Positions 20,448-28,032 of a DNA stretch of 64,000 nt are shown one piece after another; the stretch's first letter is position 1; every line of letters begins with the position of its first letter. Made by a program: the position numbers and the translations under genes. The notes under the pieces were generated by a model. That model was not told where the DNA came from. It was given only the letters and a program-made list of their open reading frames with translations, and did no database searches. The stretch comes from an uncultured Candidatus Saccharibacteria bacterium. Lineage in GTDB: Bacteria > Patescibacteriota > WWE3 > CAZQFB01. Location of the stretch: assembly GCA_964592525.1 (NCBI GenBank), contig CAZQFB010000002.1, forward strand, positions 3,310 to 67,309, written 5' to 3'.

Positions 20448-20540
20448 TCCTTGGGTGGTAAGAGTTAGACGAGGTGATCATAGTAGTTACTGCTGTGGCT
20501 GTCAATTTTAGGTTCTGTTTGGGGTGCTCAACTTGGTTGG

Positions 20541-20624
20541 GTGCCGAGAGAGGGAGTCGAACCCTCATGCTCTTAACGAGCACACGATTTTGAGTCGTGC
20601 GTGTCTGCCATTCCACCACCTCGG
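20541..20624 (-). tRNA. tRNA-Leu (anticodon CAA), long variable arm
   Basis: Cloverleaf readable on minus strand: acceptor GCCGAGG/TCTCGGC, anticodon stem CACGA/TCGTG with loop CUCAAAA, variable stem GCTC/GAGC, T-arm GAGGG-TTCGACT-CCCTC. Confidence 0.85.
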
Positions 20625-20907
20625 CTTAATAATTAAAGGTAGGCTTCTCTGGTTTGCATATTTAGTGCGGTCTTATTTTAACAGATCAGCTTGTTAAATA
20701 AAGCTTGTGGGCAAAAGGGAAAAAGAGAAAAATGGTTAGAGTGTAGCCTAACTAGTGAGCAAACTAACTGGGTAGGAATAACTTAGAAGACACCATCTGG
20801 TCTAGACTGGTCTAAAGCACCGAGAGTTTAACGAAAACAAGAAAGCCGGGGGATAGTGTAATTAATAGGTGGTCACCACAATACATATTTGCTAATATCC
20901 ACATGCA

Positions 20908-21471
20908 ATGGCGATAAATGTTACCGATTTAAGACAAGGGGCGGTATACCAAGAGAACGGTGTACCGCTGCAAGTTAAAAAATATACTCATACTAAAATG
21001 GGTAGAGGTATGGCGACCATTAAGGTCAAGGTTAAAAATCTCATCACTGGATCTTTGGTTGAAAAAACCTATTCTTCTGGTAGTAAGGTGGCTGAAGCGG
21101 AAGTAATTAGACAAAAATTACAGTACCTTTATTCTGATGCCCAGAAGTCTTTTTTTATGGATAACGCTAGTTATGAGCAATTTGAGCTGCCAAGAACTTA
21201 TATTGCTGAAGAAGTCTGGTACTTAACCCCGGGGACGGAAGTAAGCGTCATCATGTTTCAGGGAGAACCATTGGGGGTTGAATTACCGCTGAAAGTAGCG
21301 CTGCGTGTTACTTATGCCGAACCCAGTATTAAAGGTAATACTGCCAACACGGCACTGATGAAGGTACAATTAGAAACTGGTTTAGAAGTGATGACGCCAA
21401 TGTTTGTTAAAACTGGCGATTTGGTCAAAGTTGATACCAGAACCGGGGAATATGTGGAAAGGGTGGCTTAG
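20908..21471 (+). CDS. efp: Elongation factor P (Arg at the loop-tip modification position)
   Basis: 187 aa, three-domain EF-P pattern; loop HTKMGRGMA aligns to E. coli KPGKGQA with R in place of K34. Confidence 0.9.
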   Translation: MAINVTDLRQGAVYQENGVPLQVKKYTHTKMGRGMATIKVKVKNLITGSLVEKTYSSGSKVAEAEVIRQKLQYLYSDAQKSFFMDNASYEQFELPRTYIAEEVWYLTPGTEVSVIMFQGEPLGVELPLKVALRVTYAEPSIKGNTANTALMKVQLETGLEVMTPMFVKTGDLVKVDTRTGEYVERVA

Positions 21472-22580
21472 TGATTTATTCAGTGTTGGTGTTTCTAGTT
21501 TTGCTTATGGGTTTATTTCTGATTTGGCGAGAAGCAGGCAAGGCTAGTTTTTCACAAGAGAAAATATTTGATCTGGTTTTTGTTATTGGTCTGGGAGTAC
21601 TTATTATTTCTCATCTGCTCTATGTTTGGTGGGTAGGACCTTTCTCGGTAGTTAATCTGATTTATTTTTGGCACACGGGTCATTTGTTTTTTTCTGGTCT
21701 AATTGGGGGTTTAATTATTTGGTGGCTTTTAATTAGGAGAGTAGCCTGGACGTTTGCTGAAAGCGGTGACTCCTTAGTTCCGGGTATATTGTTTATTCAT
21801 GCGCTGGTGCCTTTGGTTGGGGTAATGGTTGATCAAGACCACGACACCTCAATAATGGAAGGCTTCTTTTGGTTGTTGACTTTTTACTTAGTGGTTAATC
21901 GGCAAAGGTACTTGCCCAGCTTTGTTCATATTAAGGGGCTCTTACTGCCTGGGTACTTAATCCTGGTTAGTTCTTTTTATTTAATCCTAAACAGACTAGA
22001 AGGATTTCTTATTAAGCAGGAAAAAGGACTGGCAGTTGCTGTTTTAGTTCTTGGCGTGGTAGGATTTGGGCAGCGCGTTGTTACAATCAGGTCAAGAAAA
22101 ACAACCGAATTAACATTAGACCTGACTTTTAAGAGAAGACAACGCCGGAGAGCACTTGTAATGAAATCATTACCAAAAATGCCAACTGTTCTACCCCGTC
22201 AATTTATTAAACGGATGCATCTAAAACTTATTAGGCGGGAGAAAAAGATACAAGAAGAACTAAAGTTATTAGAACGGGAAGACCCGGCACAGGATGTTGA
22301 TCGTGCTGACAATCGGGCCGAGATTGCTTCGGCAGCGAGTACGGAAGCTTTAATAAATATTATCGACTGGCAAAAAAAGTTCTTGCGTAAATCTTTGAAA
22401 AAAATCCATGGTGCTTTGAAGAGGATTAAAGAGGGAACCTATGGTTTATCAATTAAATCGGGTTTACCCATACCCCGTGAACGCTTGGAAGCTAACCCCG
22501 ACGCTGATTTGACGGTAGAAGAAGCAGCCCAAGCCGAAACAACAGAAACCAACATTCCTCCTCTGGAGAGAATCAGTTAA
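21471..22580 (+). CDS. Polytopic membrane domain fused to a cysteine-less DksA/TraR-like C-terminal domain
   Basis: Residues 1-190 hydrophobic with Lgt-like WHTGHLFFSGLIGG segment; C-terminus ALKRIKEGTYGLSIKSGLPIPRERLEANPDADLTVEE matches the DksA zinc-finger region with all four Cys replaced. Confidence 0.5.
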   Translation: MIYSVLVFLVLLMGLFLIWREAGKASFSQEKIFDLVFVIGLGVLIISHLLYVWWVGPFSVVNLIYFWHTGHLFFSGLIGGLIIWWLLIRRVAWTFAESGDSLVPGILFIHALVPLVGVMVDQDHDTSIMEGFFWLLTFYLVVNRQRYLPSFVHIKGLLLPGYLILVSSFYLILNRLEGFLIKQEKGLAVAVLVLGVVGFGQRVVTIRSRKTTELTLDLTFKRRQRRRALVMKSLPKMPTVLPRQFIKRMHLKLIRREKKIQEELKLLEREDPAQDVDRADNRAEIASAASTEALINIIDWQKKFLRKSLKKIHGALKRIKEGTYGLSIKSGLPIPRERLEANPDADLTVEEAAQAETTETNIPPLERIS

Positions 22581-22629: not shown

Positions 22630-23385
22630 ATGTCAATAACTAATAAAGCGACCAACACACTTTTGTCACTGGTGTATGAGGACGAAGAACTGCTGGTGAT
22701 TAATAAACCAGCTGGGTTGGTGGTTAATACTACCGATACCAATAAAGCTATTAGTCTGCAGAATATGCTGGAAGCGCGTTTGGGAATTAGCCAACCCCTG
22801 CTGGGTATTGGTGGTCGGGCTGGCATAGTCCACCGGTTGGATAAGGAGACTTCCGGTTTAGTGCTGGTGGCCAAAAACCAAGAAGTCTTTGCTTTTCTAC
22901 AACAACAATTTAAAGCAAGACAGGTAGTAAAAAAATACCTGGCTTTGGTGCATTCAGAACCACCCAGCCAAAAGGGTATAATTGATGCGCCTCTGGCTCG
23001 TAACCCCAAAGTGCGGCATAAGTTTGCGGTAGTGGTGGGAGGAAAAGAAGCCCAAACCTATTTTGAGGTGATGGCTTCTTTTCGGAGACCGCAAACGCAA
23101 GAGAAATTTACTTTGCTGTTAATTACCCCCCATACTGGTCGAACACACCAAATAAGAGTCCATTTAACCGCCATGAATACACCCATCGTTGGTGATTCTT
23201 TGTATGTGGGCAGAAAAAGATTGAAAACTGACCACGACTTTTGCCCCCGATTATTTTTACATGCTCAAGAGATAACGCTTAAGCTACCCAGTCAAACAAA
23301 GACCACCTTTCTCGCACCTCTGCCGACGGAGCTTCAGCTAGTACTGGACCGGTTAGATAAATTACCGGTAGTGATAACCCCATAA
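22630..23385 (+). CDS. RluA-family pseudouridine synthase
   Basis: Catalytic motif HRLDKETSGLVLVAKN; no S4 domain. Confidence 0.85.
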   Translation: MSITNKATNTLLSLVYEDEELLVINKPAGLVVNTTDTNKAISLQNMLEARLGISQPLLGIGGRAGIVHRLDKETSGLVLVAKNQEVFAFLQQQFKARQVVKKYLALVHSEPPSQKGIIDAPLARNPKVRHKFAVVVGGKEAQTYFEVMASFRRPQTQEKFTLLLITPHTGRTHQIRVHLTAMNTPIVGDSLYVGRKRLKTDHDFCPRLFLHAQEITLKLPSQTKTTFLAPLPTELQLVLDRLDKLPVVITP

Positions 23386-23714
23386 TGACGGTTAAAAGAA
23401 AACGGTTTATTAAAATTAATACCGGTTTTAAGTGTGAACAGTGCGGGTTTCAGGTAACTCCTCATCCGGCGGGTTCTTGCCGGAATCATTGTCCGGTTTG
23501 TTTATACTCTAAACATTTAGATGGCACTATTCCTGGTGATAGGCTTAACGTTTGTGGTGGGTTGATGGTACCAGTAGAGGTGGTGACCCAAGGGGATAAG
23601 GTTATTATTGTGCATCGTTGCAACAGTTGTGGTTGGAAAAGAAAAAACAAAAGCGCTCCGGATGATAATGAGGCGGTGTTAATTGAGTTGGTTAAACAGA
23701 GCTTAAGGGCTTAA
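23385..23714 (+). CDS. RNHCP domain protein (Cys-rich)
   Basis: Contains RNHCP signature and CxxC pairs; start overlaps the upstream stop. Confidence 0.55.
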   Translation: MTVKRKRFIKINTGFKCEQCGFQVTPHPAGSCRNHCPVCLYSKHLDGTIPGDRLNVCGGLMVPVEVVTQGDKVIIVHRCNSCGWKRKNKSAPDDNEAVLIELVKQSLRA

Positions 23715-24298: not shown

Positions 24299-25429
24299 AT
24301 GCCCAAACCAAAAACCTATAGGCGTAATAGTCGTGCTAAAAAGCGCGTTTCTTTAGCGACTCCCTACCGAAGTAGTAAAAAAAACCACATTCTTAAGCAA
24401 TTGCAGCGTCGGTTTCGTAATTTTGCCTTGGGTTTAATTGTCGTTATTGCCACCTTGTTTTTATTTGTTTTACTTTCGGTATGGCAGTTTTTACGAACTC
24501 CTTTAGTGGAAGCGAGTGAGGTTATTTTGCCAGAGGGCAGGTTTGATCAAGAAAATCGTTATACCGTCATGCTGTTGATGCTAGATGACTTATCAGCGCA
24601 AGTACCTAGAGTTGAATCCATAAACCTCTTGAGTATTAATCCCGTAAATGCTACCGCGGCGATGGTTAGTATTCCTAATGATCTAGACATGTCTGAACTA
24701 ACTGATTTGGGAGAGATTAAGCTGTCCTCGCTTTATGCTTTGGGTGGTATGACAAGAGAGCAGCAAAATGGCTCTATTCCTTTCATGGCAGAGACACTTA
24801 GTAAAGCCTTAGCAGTGCCAATAGATAAATACCTAATGACTGACCAGTCGGGGATGAAGGCTTTTAGCCAGGTGCTTGAGCAGAAATTAGACTGGGGATC
24901 TTTTGATGAGTTATTTTCTTTGTTTAATCTCTCTTCTGTTTGGTCGGTTGCTGGTGTTTTTCGTGAATACGTGAAGTCCGATTTTACTACGGCGCAAACA
25001 ATCACTTTGGTTAAATTCTTATTTAATGTTAGAGAAGATAAAATTCAGAAGATAGAATTATCGGCTGGCGATATTGATAATCATTTGACCTTGGCCAGTC
25101 TTTTTGGGGATCACTTGGTGGATACCCGTTTATACGAAGAGCGTTTATCAGTTCAGGTTCTGAATGGTACGGTGGTTAGTGGCGTAGCTGGGTTGGTTAG
25201 TCGTTATATTGAAAATATGGGTGGTCGGGTAGTGGGTATGGGCAATACCAGGGAACAGGATAGTGAAAATAGCTATATCTTAGCCAGAAATCCGGAAGCT
25301 TATTCCGTGCGCCGACTGTCTTGGTTGTTTAATATACCAGAAATACGAGAATACAGTGATACTTATGGCATTCGTGATCGGGCTGATATTACTATTGTGA
25401 TTGGTCTTGACTTGGCTCGTGAGTTGTGA
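24299..25429 (+). CDS. LytR-CpsA-Psr (LCP) family protein
   Basis: Basic N-terminus, TM helix, LCP-like core (LLMLDD ... SIPNDL), C-terminal LytR_C-like segment VQVLNGTVVSGVAGLV. Confidence 0.7.
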   Translation: MPKPKTYRRNSRAKKRVSLATPYRSSKKNHILKQLQRRFRNFALGLIVVIATLFLFVLLSVWQFLRTPLVEASEVILPEGRFDQENRYTVMLLMLDDLSAQVPRVESINLLSINPVNATAAMVSIPNDLDMSELTDLGEIKLSSLYALGGMTREQQNGSIPFMAETLSKALAVPIDKYLMTDQSGMKAFSQVLEQKLDWGSFDELFSLFNLSSVWSVAGVFREYVKSDFTTAQTITLVKFLFNVREDKIQKIELSAGDIDNHLTLASLFGDHLVDTRLYEERLSVQVLNGTVVSGVAGLVSRYIENMGGRVVGMGNTREQDSENSYILARNPEAYSVRRLSWLFNIPEIREYSDTYGIRDRADITIVIGLDLAREL

Positions 25430-25575: not shown

Positions 25576-28032
25576 ATGGTAGAACAATTACCTCTTTTGG
25601 TCTTGTTTGTAATCTTACTTTCTTTTTACTTAGCAGTTCGTGCGGCAAGGATAAAAATGGAAGAGAAGAACCCTTCTACGTTTGAAGTAACCTTCTTCAA
25701 AATTCGTGTACCTAAAGGTAATACTAAACAGTCATTATCGGCGGAACAGATGTTTGCTTCACTTCACGGTTTGTTGCGGGAAAAAGATAGCATTCAAGAG
25801 CATATCAGCTTTGAAATTGAGTCTAGTGAAAACGGCATTAATTTTTATGTGGTGGCACCCAATGTGGTGAAAGAATTTGTGCTTGGTCAGATCTATGCTC
25901 AATACCCGGACGCCGAAATTAAAGAAGAAAAAGATTATGCGCAATTAGCTTCTGCGGAAGGAGTAGCTATTAGTGGAGCACGGATAACACAAGCTAAAGA
26001 CTATTATTTTCCTATTCGGACCTTCCGAGATTTTGATGTGGATCCTTTGGCAGCAATTACCGGATCTTTTGCGGAGATGAGTCGCGGGGGTCGGGTGTGG
26101 TGGCAGATTATCGCTAGACCTCTTCCAGATAAGTGGCAGGAGGCGGGTCATGAATATGTGGCTGTGCAGAGAGGCGAGAAGAAACCTGCCGTCAAGTTAA
26201 GCCTCAAAATCTTAATGGAAGAAGTGCGTAAAGAGATAGTGGTTATCTTCTCTTTCATCGTGAAAAATATTTTGTATGGACCACAAACGAAAGAAGAGGA
26301 AAAAAAGAAAGAAGAAAAAACCATAGAGGGGATGAAAAAAGACACACTCTCGTTAATAGAGCAAAAACTGACTAAATTAGGTTTTGAAGTGCATATGCGG
26401 GTGGTGGCTATTCATCCAGATGAACTAACAGCCAAAGATTATGTGAAAAGGGTTAATGCGGCTTTGCGTCAATATGCAGCAGCCAATGTGAATAGTTTTA
26501 AAGCAGAATTTGCCGAGGATACCACGAAGTTTTTAGAACATTACCGCCAACGCCAATTTCCAGCCACATCAAAATTGATATTAAATACCGAAGAATTAGC
26601 ATCCATCTACCATTTCCCAAATGAAACGGTGGAAACCCCAGCGATCTCGTGGGCTCCCGCTAGACATGCAGAACCACCCCTCAATTTACCTATTAGAGAA
26701 TGCACTTACTTTGGCAAAACAACTTACCGTGATAAGTTGATTACCTTTGGGATCAGAAGGGAAGATCGACGGCGTCACATGTACCTAATAGGGAAAACGG
26801 GTACGGGTAAAACGACGGTATTTAAAGCGATGATTAAACAGGATATGGATAACGGTGCGGGTTTTGCCGTGATTGATCCCCATGGACAATTGATTGATGA
26901 GTTGTTGGAGATGGTACCTGACCATCGTTTGGAGGATGTGGTTATTTTTGATCCGTCTGATACCACTAAACCGGTAGCCTTGAATTTGTTAGAAGCAAAC
27001 ACTGAAGATGTGGGACAGAAAAATTTGTTGGCTTCGGGGTTACTGATGGCTTTTAAAAAGAACTTTGAGTATTCATGGGGACCTAGACTAGAGTATTTGT
27101 TGAATAATGCCATTTTAACTCTGGTGGGGGTAGATAAAACGACACTGCTGGGTATCACGCGCTTGTTAAGTGATAAAAACTACCGCAAGTATATTACTTA
27201 TAAGGTGAAGGACCCAATATTAGCTGATTTTTGGGATAATGAGTACACTGAATTTCAACAGTCGCGTATTGCTACCGAAGCGGTAGCACCAATTCAAAAT
27301 AAAGTGGGTCGGTTTTTAGCTTCTTCAACGATTAGAAACATTTTAGGTCAAGCTCATTCCACGATTGATTTTGACGACATTATGAATAGTGGCAAAATGT
27401 TATTTATCACCTTATCTAAAGGCAGAATCGGTGAGGACAATGCTAATTTACTAGGTAGTTTATTGGTTTCACGTTTAAACTTTTCTGCAATGCGTCGGGT
27501 AGATATACCCGAAGAGCAGCGTCGGGATTTTAATCTTTATGTGGATGAGTTTCAAAACTTTGCTTCCGGTGATTTTGCTTCCATATTATCAGAAGCACGA
27601 AAATATAGATTGAACCTACATCTTACTCATCAGTATACCAAACAACTACCCGAGGAAATATTAGATGCTGTGGTCGGTAACGTGGGTACTTTAGTGGCTT
27701 TAACCCTAGGCGCTCCGGATGCATTAGCGCTGGAAAAAGAATTTGAACCTGTCTTCACGGCTAATGATCTTATCAACTTGGAAAAGTACCAGTTTTATAC
27801 TAAATTAATGATTGATCAGACCTCTTCTTTGCCTTTTTCAGGGATTACTATTCCTCCGCAAGAGTTTGAAGTGTTAACCGGAAACAGAGATAAAGCGGTG
27901 CAAAAGAGTCGAGAAAAGTATGGTCGTGAGAGAGAACAGGTGGAAGAAATTATTAAGCGCTGGCGAGTGCGCAACTTTGATTTGGGCATGGCCAAAGCGG
28001 AAGAAATAGTAGCTAATAGAGAAGGGAATTAG
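25576..28032 (+). CDS. Membrane-anchored P-loop NTPase, HerA/VirB4/TraC-like
   Basis: N-terminal TM, ~380-aa N-domain, Walker A LIGKTGTGKTT, IDPHGQL motif, Walker B LYVDEFQNF. Confidence 0.5.
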   Translation: MVEQLPLLVLFVILLSFYLAVRAARIKMEEKNPSTFEVTFFKIRVPKGNTKQSLSAEQMFASLHGLLREKDSIQEHISFEIESSENGINFYVVAPNVVKEFVLGQIYAQYPDAEIKEEKDYAQLASAEGVAISGARITQAKDYYFPIRTFRDFDVDPLAAITGSFAEMSRGGRVWWQIIARPLPDKWQEAGHEYVAVQRGEKKPAVKLSLKILMEEVRKEIVVIFSFIVKNILYGPQTKEEEKKKEEKTIEGMKKDTLSLIEQKLTKLGFEVHMRVVAIHPDELTAKDYVKRVNAALRQYAAANVNSFKAEFAEDTTKFLEHYRQRQFPATSKLILNTEELASIYHFPNETVETPAISWAPARHAEPPLNLPIRECTYFGKTTYRDKLITFGIRREDRRRHMYLIGKTGTGKTTVFKAMIKQDMDNGAGFAVIDPHGQLIDELLEMVPDHRLEDVVIFDPSDTTKPVALNLLEANTEDVGQKNLLASGLLMAFKKNFEYSWGPRLEYLLNNAILTLVGVDKTTLLGITRLLSDKNYRKYITYKVKDPILADFWDNEYTEFQQSRIATEAVAPIQNKVGRFLASSTIRNILGQAHSTIDFDDIMNSGKMLFITLSKGRIGEDNANLLGSLLVSRLNFSAMRRVDIPEEQRRDFNLYVDEFQNFASGDFASILSEARKYRLNLHLTHQYTKQLPEEILDAVVGNVGTLVALTLGAPDALALEKEFEPVFTANDLINLEKYQFYTKLMIDQTSSLPFSGITIPPQEFEVLTGNRDKAVQKSREKYGREREQVEEIIKRWRVRNFDLGMAKAEEIVANREGN

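Follow-up and report, generated by a model that had tools for sequence, protein, structure and literature searches.

The 64,000-nucleotide stretch analysed here (the window, 64 kb of contig CAZQFB010000002.1 from an uncultured Candidatus Saccharibacteria bacterium) carries at 21471..22580, on the + strand, a gene that joins a membrane domain with the fold of prolipoprotein diacylglyceryl transferase (Lgt) to a domain related to the DksA/TraR proteins. The gene has a GTG start and a TAA stop and encodes 369 residues, none of which is cysteine. It is positioned between two conserved neighbours: efp, the gene for elongation factor P (20908..21471, + strand), whose stop shares 1 nt with the GTG start of the fusion gene, and a gene for a RluD-type pseudouridine synthase (22630..23385, + strand), which starts 50 nt past the fusion gene. 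An earlier note on this DNA, made without database searches, had described a single 369-aa open reading frame (ORF) in which a membrane domain tethers a cysteine-less DksA-like domain. The ORF was confirmed, all sequence strings quoted for it were located (ALKRIKEGTYG at aa 315-325, IPRERLEANPDADL at aa 334-347 and DVDRAD at aa 275-280), and sequence, profile, predicted fold and conservation agree on the proposed architecture.

The AlphaFold2 (AF2) model of the fusion protein, with a mean predicted local distance difference test score (pLDDT) of 89.2, is composed of seven transmembrane (TM) helices (aa 2-24, 29-54, 73-91, 95-120, 125-153, 158-177 and 182-212), a disordered linker, a coiled coil, a knuckle and a C-terminal helix. 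The best Foldseek matches of the model in the PDB are DksA2 (4IJJ, TMt 0.71) and DksA (1TJL, TMt 0.70, root-mean-square deviation 2.4 Å), and E. coli Lgt (5AZB) is matched with a TMt of 0.54 over 263 columns, TMt being the TM-score normalised to the target. Sequence matches to the PDB are found with DksA2 4IJJ (8e-5) and E. coli DksA 1TJL (1e-3). A profile built from 44 members of the protein family matches 5AZB at 5e-15, over Lgt residues 15-150 and weakly over residues 206-286. With the same profile, DksA structures give 2e-16 to 1e-10, and TraR and YbiI about 1e-6. Given these profile, PDB and fold matches, the resemblance of both halves to Lgt and DksA is far beyond chance.

The Lgt-derived membrane domain

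The seven-TM (7-TM) membrane domain spans aa 1-212 (21471..22106, + strand) and is delimited by the Pfam LGT model, the family profile, the AF2 model and the Foldseek match to 5AZB. PF01790 scores 26.6 bits (E=4.4e-6) against a gathering cut-off of 24.9, covering only profile positions 13-124 of 240. The Lgt-like polytopic N-terminus proposed earlier is thus borne out as a fold and at the level of the Lgt profile; the catalytic residues are lost, and the domain does not appear to be an Lgt enzyme. Its N-terminus is predicted to lie outside the membrane and its C-terminus in the cytoplasm.

Residues of E. coli Lgt were mapped onto the domain with the same result in three independent alignments. 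Kept residues are Y26 (Y3), D129 (D100) and E202 (E130), and replaced residues include R143 (P114), N146 (G117), H103 (F74), R239 (Y170), E243 (N174) and R246 (E177), while E151 and G154 are deleted. The Lgt signature G142-R-L-G-N-F-I-N-G-E-L-W-G154 is absent, the corresponding stretch reading V113-P114-L-V-G117-V-M-V before the deletion, and the periplasmic head (~Lgt residues 155-205, about 50 residues) has no counterpart in the fusion protein. A remnant of the arm-2 'HGGL' region is present at aa 67-80 (WHTGHLFFSGLIGG; 21669..21710, + strand), where it aligns to E. coli Lgt W96..G108 and HGGL has become FSGL. In E. coli Lgt, the R143A/E/K, E151A/Q, R239A/E/H/K/Q, E243A/Q/R and R246A/E/H/K/Q variants are all inactive, and R143 is described as absolutely conserved in the crystal-structure paper (PMC4728403).

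The loss of these residues extends to the relatives. R143 is kept in none of the fused members examined; stand-alone Lgt homologues from the same search keep 'VRIGCFFNGCC' or 'GRLANFVNGE'. Degeneration is graded, as two fused members, P0008 and P0056, retain R239 and R246 and still align to the Pfam LGT profile over its full length. Conservation across the family is lowest in the once-catalytic, periplasm-facing regions (information 0.26-0.32), whereas within the membrane domain it is highest in cytoplasmic loops 1 and 2 (0.56 and 0.53), a pattern that fits docking or anchoring and not catalysis. We read the Lgt half as a putative pseudo-enzyme anchor, probably catalytically dead in fused and split relatives alike (split meaning that the two halves are encoded by separate genes), and diacylglyceryl transfer to a lipobox cysteine by the fusion protein is predicted to be absent.

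That the gene instead encodes an active prolipoprotein diacylglyceryl transferase with a regulatory C-terminal extension is very improbable. The Pfam score just over the cut-off, the 7-TM Lgt fold and the kept Y26, D129 and E202 equivalents would be in keeping with such an enzyme, as would the lack of any other Lgt homologue in the window, where Patescibacterial Lgt-type queries match only the fusion ORF and neither lspA nor a second lgt was found; a phmmer search of the window ORFs with E. coli Lgt itself gave no match, the fusion ORF included. Against this, the GRxGNFxNxExxG signature and the periplasmic head are missing, the R239/E243/R246 network is changed to Y, N and E, changes at R143, E151, R239, E243 and R246 are those that inactivate the E. 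coli enzyme (PMC4728403), and the once-catalytic regions are the least conserved part of the family. A strict lipobox pattern also found no candidate lipoproteins among the ORFs of the 64-kb window, which is weak evidence from a small region.

The split 7-TM partners in loci L014, L015, L019 and L023 (262-280 aa) are strongly Lgt-like, near full-length Lgt paralogues with a short periplasmic arm ('PWG..FPGS'), Gln at the R143 position (IQIGAFFDGSGFGK) and N/S for R239. From their sequences they look like an intermediate stage of Lgt degeneration.

The linker and the DksA-like domain

The two domains are connected by a basic linker (aa 213-242, RVVTIRSRKTTELTLDLTFKRRQRRRALVMKSLPKMPTV; 22107..22196, + strand), with pLDDT values of 51-56 over aa 211-240. 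From the seven TM helices, the Lgt-type topology and the strongly basic linker, read by the positive-inside rule, we infer that the DksA-like module is cytoplasmic; a matching charge distribution has been described for E. coli Lgt (PMC4728403). The linker region also contains a possible internal start (22147..22163, + strand), in which a Shine-Dalgarno-like GGAGAG at 22147-22152 is followed after 8 nt by an ATG at 22161-22163 (M231). This ATG coincides with the start position of the separate dksA-like gene in split relatives, and the orthologue P0002 (locus L003) has GGAGG, 9 nt and ATG at the equivalent site, with a weaker version in L091. The motif and ATG may be left over from the gene as it was before the fusion, or they may act as an internal start, in which case a soluble 139-aa isoform may be made alongside the tethered form; the motif could equally be a by-product of the Arg codons in the basic linker.

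The DksA-like domain begins with a DksA-type coiled coil (aa 243-321; 22197..22433, + strand), composed of helix 1 (aa 243-270) and helix 2 (aa 288-321), which are joined by a 17-residue tip loop (aa 271-287, DPAQDVDRADNRAEIAS). It continues into the 'zinc-knuckle' region (aa 322-348; 22434..22514, + strand), which is devoid of zinc ligands, and ends with a C-terminal helix (aa 349-359) and tail (aa 349-369 together; 22515..22577, + strand). The ungapped HMMER alignment to E. coli DksA places C114, C117, C135 and C138 opposite S327, S330, T348 and E351, the S, S, T, E replacement of the C4 region that the earlier note had read. Neither a CxxC-x17-CxxC zinc finger nor a C2 or C1 variant with the first cysteine is found, and with no cysteine in the module, zinc is therefore not bound through the canonical site. 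By E-value, this half matches the NCBIfam models yteA (E=2e-13), dksA (5e-10) and DksA_like (2e-8).

The highest conservation in the whole protein family is observed in the knuckle (information 0.69) and the tip loop (0.54). Invariant knuckle residues are G322, Y324, G325, I334, R338 and L339, with P343 near-invariant, and the family-conserved positions correspond to E. coli DksA G112, I121, R125 (R338), L126 (L339) and P130; R125 has a role in RNA polymerase (RNAP) binding. The E. coli residues of site 2 for guanosine tetraphosphate (ppGpp), K98, R129 and K139, map to K311, which is kept, N342 and A352. In the tip loop, E. coli D71xxD74xA76 aligns to E284-I-A-S287-A-A289, so that the acidic DxxDxA motif is absent from the fusion protein; by our reading of the alignment, (D/E)xxD(D/E)(A/V) is the predominant form in the family. 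The loop as a whole remains acidic (D271, D275, D277, D280 and E284), and D271, P272 and R278 are near-invariant in the family. DVDRAD, previously proposed as a coiled-coil-tip motif, does lie within this conserved acidic loop, in a family-specific segment (D271-P272 … R278 … N-A-E), but it is positioned upstream of the DxxDxA homologue and does not itself correspond to it.

The protein is not a one-off, as the earlier description of an unusual regulator had implied, but belongs to a sizeable family in which most members carry a C4 zinc finger. Among the fused proteins, with 47 relatives classified, 33 have the CCCC pattern, 8 have CCC(H/D), 1 is of the C1 type and 6 are Cys-free (5 relatives and the window protein). 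The window protein (P0001) and its relatives P0002 and P0006, which are 30-40% identical, share both S,S,T,E and a tip-loop motif, (D/E)R..(D/N)NAE. The exact S,S,T,E pattern also occurs in 69 of the top matches that are stand-alone DksA-like proteins of ~110-150 aa, with a high-GC amino-acid composition and the knuckle GTYGRSVRSGVPIPDERLEADPAAELTVEEA. This class includes P0021, P0024, P0031, P0033-P0035, P0037, P0040, P0046 and P0048; one of its 90%-identity clusters has 148 members, and the IMG labels that were looked up read 'DnaK suppressor protein' or 'RNA polymerase-binding transcription factor'. A horizontal swap of the C-terminal domain from this stand-alone class, whose knuckle is at most 71% identical, was considered and provisionally rejected, because a crude, low-resolution neighbour-joining (NJ) tree of DksA-like domains puts P0001, P0002 and P0006 with other Patescibacterial fused proteins. 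Given that grouping, and not one with the large stand-alone clade, the S,S,T,E knuckle is probably convergent and arose more than once.

A further layout is seen in P0044 (243 aa) and P0096 (528 aa), in which Cys-free (S,S,R,E) DksA-like domains follow long Lys/Ala/Pro-rich, histone-H1-like N-terminal extensions. This resembles Streptomyces DdbA, minus the zinc finger.

The C-terminal tail (aa 360-369, 22548-22577), with the motif NIPPLERIS, is kept in a subset of the fused proteins (P0002, P0006, P0005, P0009, P0028 and P0092), with the form PP(L/M)ERI(S/N) common to P0001, P0002 and P0006. Variants among fused relatives are LPPMERIS, TPPMERIN, IPPTKRVS, GIRRVA and (D/E)IRRVS, and the tail is missing from split DksA-like proteins, which end in CEKKREK. 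The tail is a possible short docking motif.

These shared features also bear on the view that the protein is a decaying remnant that has kept its fold without a specific function in this lineage. Relative to the family consensus it has lost all cysteines and the tip Asp, two near-invariant positions have changed (N to R282 and E to T291), and its Lgt half is the most degenerate of those examined. Decay is nevertheless very unlikely: P0001, P0002 and P0006 have kept full-length ORFs at only 30-40% identity while sharing S,S,T,E, the tip-loop motif and the tail, the fold is predicted with high confidence, and the operon position is conserved.

Gene fusion, split relatives and gene order

An exhaustive HMMER scan of 1.84 billion representative proteins returned 596 matches, among them many 300-420-aa proteins aligned over both halves; classified by TM content and motif, about 46 of the best 150 of these 596 matches are fusions of this length. 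Within the aligned family, 38/44 members match zf-dskA_traR and 30/44 match LGT. A word-indexed homologue search retrieved only the protein itself when it was used as a single query and only 7 proteins with the family alignment, and a single-protein scan of genome contigs matched only a stand-alone DksA-like gene in a Thermodesulfatator metagenome-assembled genome. Both domain matches are present in the precomputed Pfam annotation of relatives such as P0005, and one fused member is named 'TraR/DksA C4-type zinc finger protein [Patescibacteria group bacterium]' in the database; the architecture has therefore been unrecognised, not invisible. No description of an Lgt-DksA fusion or of a membrane-anchored DksA was found in the literature searched. 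The fusion protein family is specific to a lineage of Patescibacteria (candidate phyla radiation, CPR), and the nearest named relatives of the DnaB encoded in the window, at 60-62% identity, are all 'candidate division WWE3' or 'Patescibacteria group'.

The two halves also occur as separate genes. A pattern scan of Joint Genome Institute (JGI) metagenome contigs, followed by ORF calling and phmmer labelling, identified at least 17 loci in which a 7-TM gene (176-280 aa) abuts or overlaps a dksA-like gene (123-149 aa). The overlaps are 1-29 nt, often of the 4-nt ATGA type, and loci whose flanks are present have efp on the upstream side and rluD on the downstream side. A profile built from the fused TM domains matches four of the split upstream partners at 1e-28 to 1e-35 and seven at 1e-8 to 1e-16, with five borderline, and it matches no ORF other than split partners in ~90 loci.

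In the window the 2.7 kb around the gene is base-for-base identical in an independent Logan assembly of SRR11845623, and orthologues are encoded in one frame in a shared context, with the order efp–X–rluD–RNHCP for P0002 (40% identity; X denotes the fusion gene), efp–X–rluD–LytR_C for P0006 (30%) and Lactamase_B–dnaB–…–efp–X for P0022 (22%). A merger of a membrane-protein gene with a dksA-like gene by a frameshift or lost stop in sequencing or assembly, which had been raised as one explanation of the ORF, is therefore rejected. Overlaps such as those of the split genes could be merged by a single indel, and a Shine-Dalgarno-like motif and ATG are kept at the junction; even so, with the identical second assembly, the orthologues from other samples that are single ORFs in the same context and the ~46 fused representatives, an artefact is extremely unlikely. 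The other part of that suggestion, two merged genes, stands in an evolutionary sense: the halves are separate abutting or overlapping genes in many Patescibacteria, and the ORF is therefore a true gene fusion.

Pseudo-lgt and the dksA-like gene thus form a conserved module of two genes, fused in several lineages, a classical sign that both products work together physically. The conserved gene order is efp – [7TM] – [DksA-like] – (lspA) – rluD. In the crude, low-resolution NJ tree a few stand-alone proteins are interspersed among the fused ones and the sampled split forms are one clade inside the fused group.

Several other features surround the gene. The last gene of the apparent efp–X–rluD–RNHCP operon encodes an RNHCP-domain protein with four-Cys motifs (23385..23714, + strand); its start overlaps the rluD stop, and the same pairing is found in the orthologous locus L003. 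Promoter and terminator scans flanking the fusion gene gave background level only. A tRNA-Leu(CAA) at 20540-20625 on the − strand, between dnaB and efp, is the sole Rfam or ARAGORN match in the 64 kb. Just 3' of a LytR_C/LCP-like gene (24299-25429), in otherwise housekeeping surroundings, an 818-aa protein (25576-28032, + strand) matches TrwB_AAD_bind and HerA/DUF87, as in a type IV secretion coupling-protein-like ATPase.

Proposed function and comparison with known systems

From its sequence and predicted fold, we propose that the fusion protein may act as a membrane-tethered RNAP secondary-channel factor, a reading to which we give a probability of roughly 55%. The Lgt remnant would not lipidate proteins but would serve as an anchor or docking platform, as suggested by its cytoplasmic loops being its best-conserved part, and perhaps regulates the DksA/TraR-type factor besides anchoring it. 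The DksA-like module would insert its conserved acidic tip loop (D271, D275, D277, D280 and E284) into the secondary channel, and may bind there and at the β' rim helices. It would probably do so independently of ppGpp, since only one of the three site-2 residues is kept. As a consequence, a fraction of RNAP or of the factor would be held at the membrane, or availability of the factor would depend on the membrane domain, and a soluble form initiated from the Shine-Dalgarno motif and ATG at M231 could exist beside the tethered one. A DksA-like function of the module is plausible because the knuckle and tip loop are the most conserved parts of the family, R338 and L339 are invariant, and Zn-free C2 and C1 DksA proteins retain the fold (PMC9126822).

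Several points weigh against this proposal. Pfam zf-dskA_traR scores 13-15 bits, below its gathering cut-off of 24.9, as would be anticipated for a short zinc-finger model when the cysteines are gone, and the NCBIfam scores are far under the curated cut-offs (36-40 versus 115.5 bits for dksA and 48-51 versus 134.4 for yteA); homology to DksA/TraR is nonetheless clear from the E-value of 2e-13 and from the match of the family profile to PDB DksA structures at 2e-16. The Asp at the position of D74, which is essential in DksA, is lost in the fusion protein, where it is Ser287, and in its closest relatives, and family residues that are otherwise near-invariant are replaced (N by R282 and E by T291). 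With all zinc ligands gone as well, the fusion protein may have diverged further than any other family member and changed in activity. Single knock-outs of B. subtilis yteA, yocK and ylyA had no effect on rRNA promoters (PMC3113569), and the C. trachomatis protein, DksA_Ct, fails to complement E. coli dksA (PMC9126822); relatives of this lineage therefore need not act like E. coli DksA. Lastly, the tight and widespread linkage to lgt-like genes and lspA could point to lipoprotein processing over transcription.

The linkage itself extends well beyond the window. In 8/8 soil-type non-CPR contigs tested, a stand-alone dksA-like gene and rluD enclose an ORF for LspA (Peptidase_A8, E=1e-29 to 1e-33), and in the Patescibacterial loci L008 and L011 an LspA-like ORF lies directly 3' of the fusion gene. 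The distance from the dksA-like gene to rluD is at most about 810 nt in the 51 loci with both genes, except L026 and L067. In B. subtilis the gene order is ylyA-lspA-rluD. There, ylyA is one of three DksA homologues (PMC3113569) and adjoins ileS (PMC5282499), and Chlamydiae have an nrdR-dksA-lspA operon (PMC9126822). With rluD just downstream here and relatives positioned upstream of lspA/rluD, the window gene belongs to the DksA-like lineage that adjoins lspA/rluD (YlyA-type) in many phyla, and lspA has left the gene cluster in its own clade.

In some loci the LspA-like ORF after the fusion gene is very short (113-133 aa; L011 3605-4316, L005 6024-6772 and L008 6003-6395). In L011 and L005 a stand-alone response-regulator receiver domain lies between the short ORF and rluD, and the 133-aa ORF of L005 is unannotated, a putative LspA.

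The main rival to an RNAP factor is a lipoprotein-processing role, in which the DksA-fold domain would be a cytoplasmic accessory of lipoprotein maturation, as a docking partner or chaperone for the Lgt-like protein, LspA or their substrates, and the fusion would record a physical complex of Lgt-like and DksA-fold partners. We consider this rather unlikely, though of the alternatives it has the most to be said for it: lspA lies directly 3' of dksA-like genes in all eight non-CPR contigs and an LspA-like ORF in L008 and L011, the chlamydial operon has the same linkage (PMC9126822), the Patescibacterial gene invariably has an Lgt homologue as its partner, separate or fused, the window protein lacks the canonical tip Asp, and E. 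coli DksA is reported to have peptidyl-prolyl isomerase activity (PMC7461557). Weighing against it, every Lgt partner is without its catalytic site, leaving no working maturation enzyme, and neither the cluster nor the rest of the 64 kb contains lspA. A shared operon is by itself weak evidence that functions are shared, and nothing but linkage suggests the accessory role. To our knowledge, moreover, the characterised DksA/TraR-fold proteins act on RNAP.

We regard a more elaborate version of the tethered RNAP factor as a doubtful, speculative extension. The pseudo-Lgt/DksA-like pair, fused or split, would be a one-component transmembrane signalling device in which the Lgt-derived domain binds phosphatidylglycerol or the signal peptides of unprocessed prolipoproteins without turnover, occupancy is passed through the conserved cytoplasmic loops to the tethered DksA-like module, and the module then engages or releases the RNAP secondary channel. 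If true, transcription initiation would be coupled directly to envelope or lipoprotein status in bacteria whose regulatory repertoires are minimal, and the DksA-like/lspA linkage across many phyla would by extension be explained.

DksA/TraR proteins have been described as small soluble factors, so a conserved tethered family would add a new form of control or localisation of a secondary-channel factor. Lgt, an essential envelope enzyme, would also clearly have been reused here as a pseudo-enzyme scaffold. As a 'Rosetta stone', the fusion predicts physical interaction of the separate 7-TM and DksA-like proteins in many Patescibacteria, and it opens a concrete, testable route to explaining why DksA-like genes (YlyA, chlamydial DksA and others) are linked to lipoprotein-processing genes in several phyla.

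Among known systems, the seven-TM fold is common to the window protein and Lgt (5AZB), with homology over TM1-TM4 (Lgt 15-150) and weakly over TM5-TM7, and the cytoplasmic loop motifs and arm-2 remnant are kept. Unlike Lgt, the window protein lacks the signature motif, the R143/R239/E243/R246 network and the periplasmic head, and it would not be a functional member of that family. For the DksA half, the E. coli DksA/TraR structures 1TJL, 5VSW, 7KHI and 6N57 are matched by the family profile at 1e-10 to 4e-6, and the equivalents of E. coli I121, R125, L126 and P130 are invariant or nearly so in the fusion family. In contrast to these proteins, the window protein has no C4 finger, has ExxSxA at the tip, keeps only K98 of site 2 and is predicted to be membrane-anchored. 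The best NCBIfam match is to the B. subtilis YteA/YlyA/YocK type (TIGR02890, E=2e-13), whose members are soluble, mostly have Cys ligands and have no known Lgt-like partner.

A precedent for localising a DksA-like module by N-terminal fusion is Streptomyces DdbA, which is directed to the nucleoid; its partner is a soluble, DNA-binding, histone-like tail and not a membrane domain, and it keeps C4 and both tip Asp residues, unlike the window protein (PMC3643593). The best sequence and structure matches of the DksA half are P. aeruginosa DksA2 (4IJJ, C2) and C. trachomatis DksA (6PTG, C1), which have the coiled coil, knuckle and C-terminal helix in common with it and in which Ser/Thr-type residues likewise take the place of zinc ligands without loss of the fold; chlamydial dksA, too, is lspA-linked (PMC9126822). 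These two proteins are soluble, ~130 aa long and keep at least the first cysteine, in line with the published statement on DksA types that 'the first cysteine [is] always conserved' (PMC9126822). The window protein differs from them in its 'C0' form, its 17-residue tip loop, the missing Asp at the D74 position and its 7-TM anchor, and the Cys-free knuckle that it has in common with the stand-alone S,S,T,E proteins falls outside the published C4/C2/C1 scheme.

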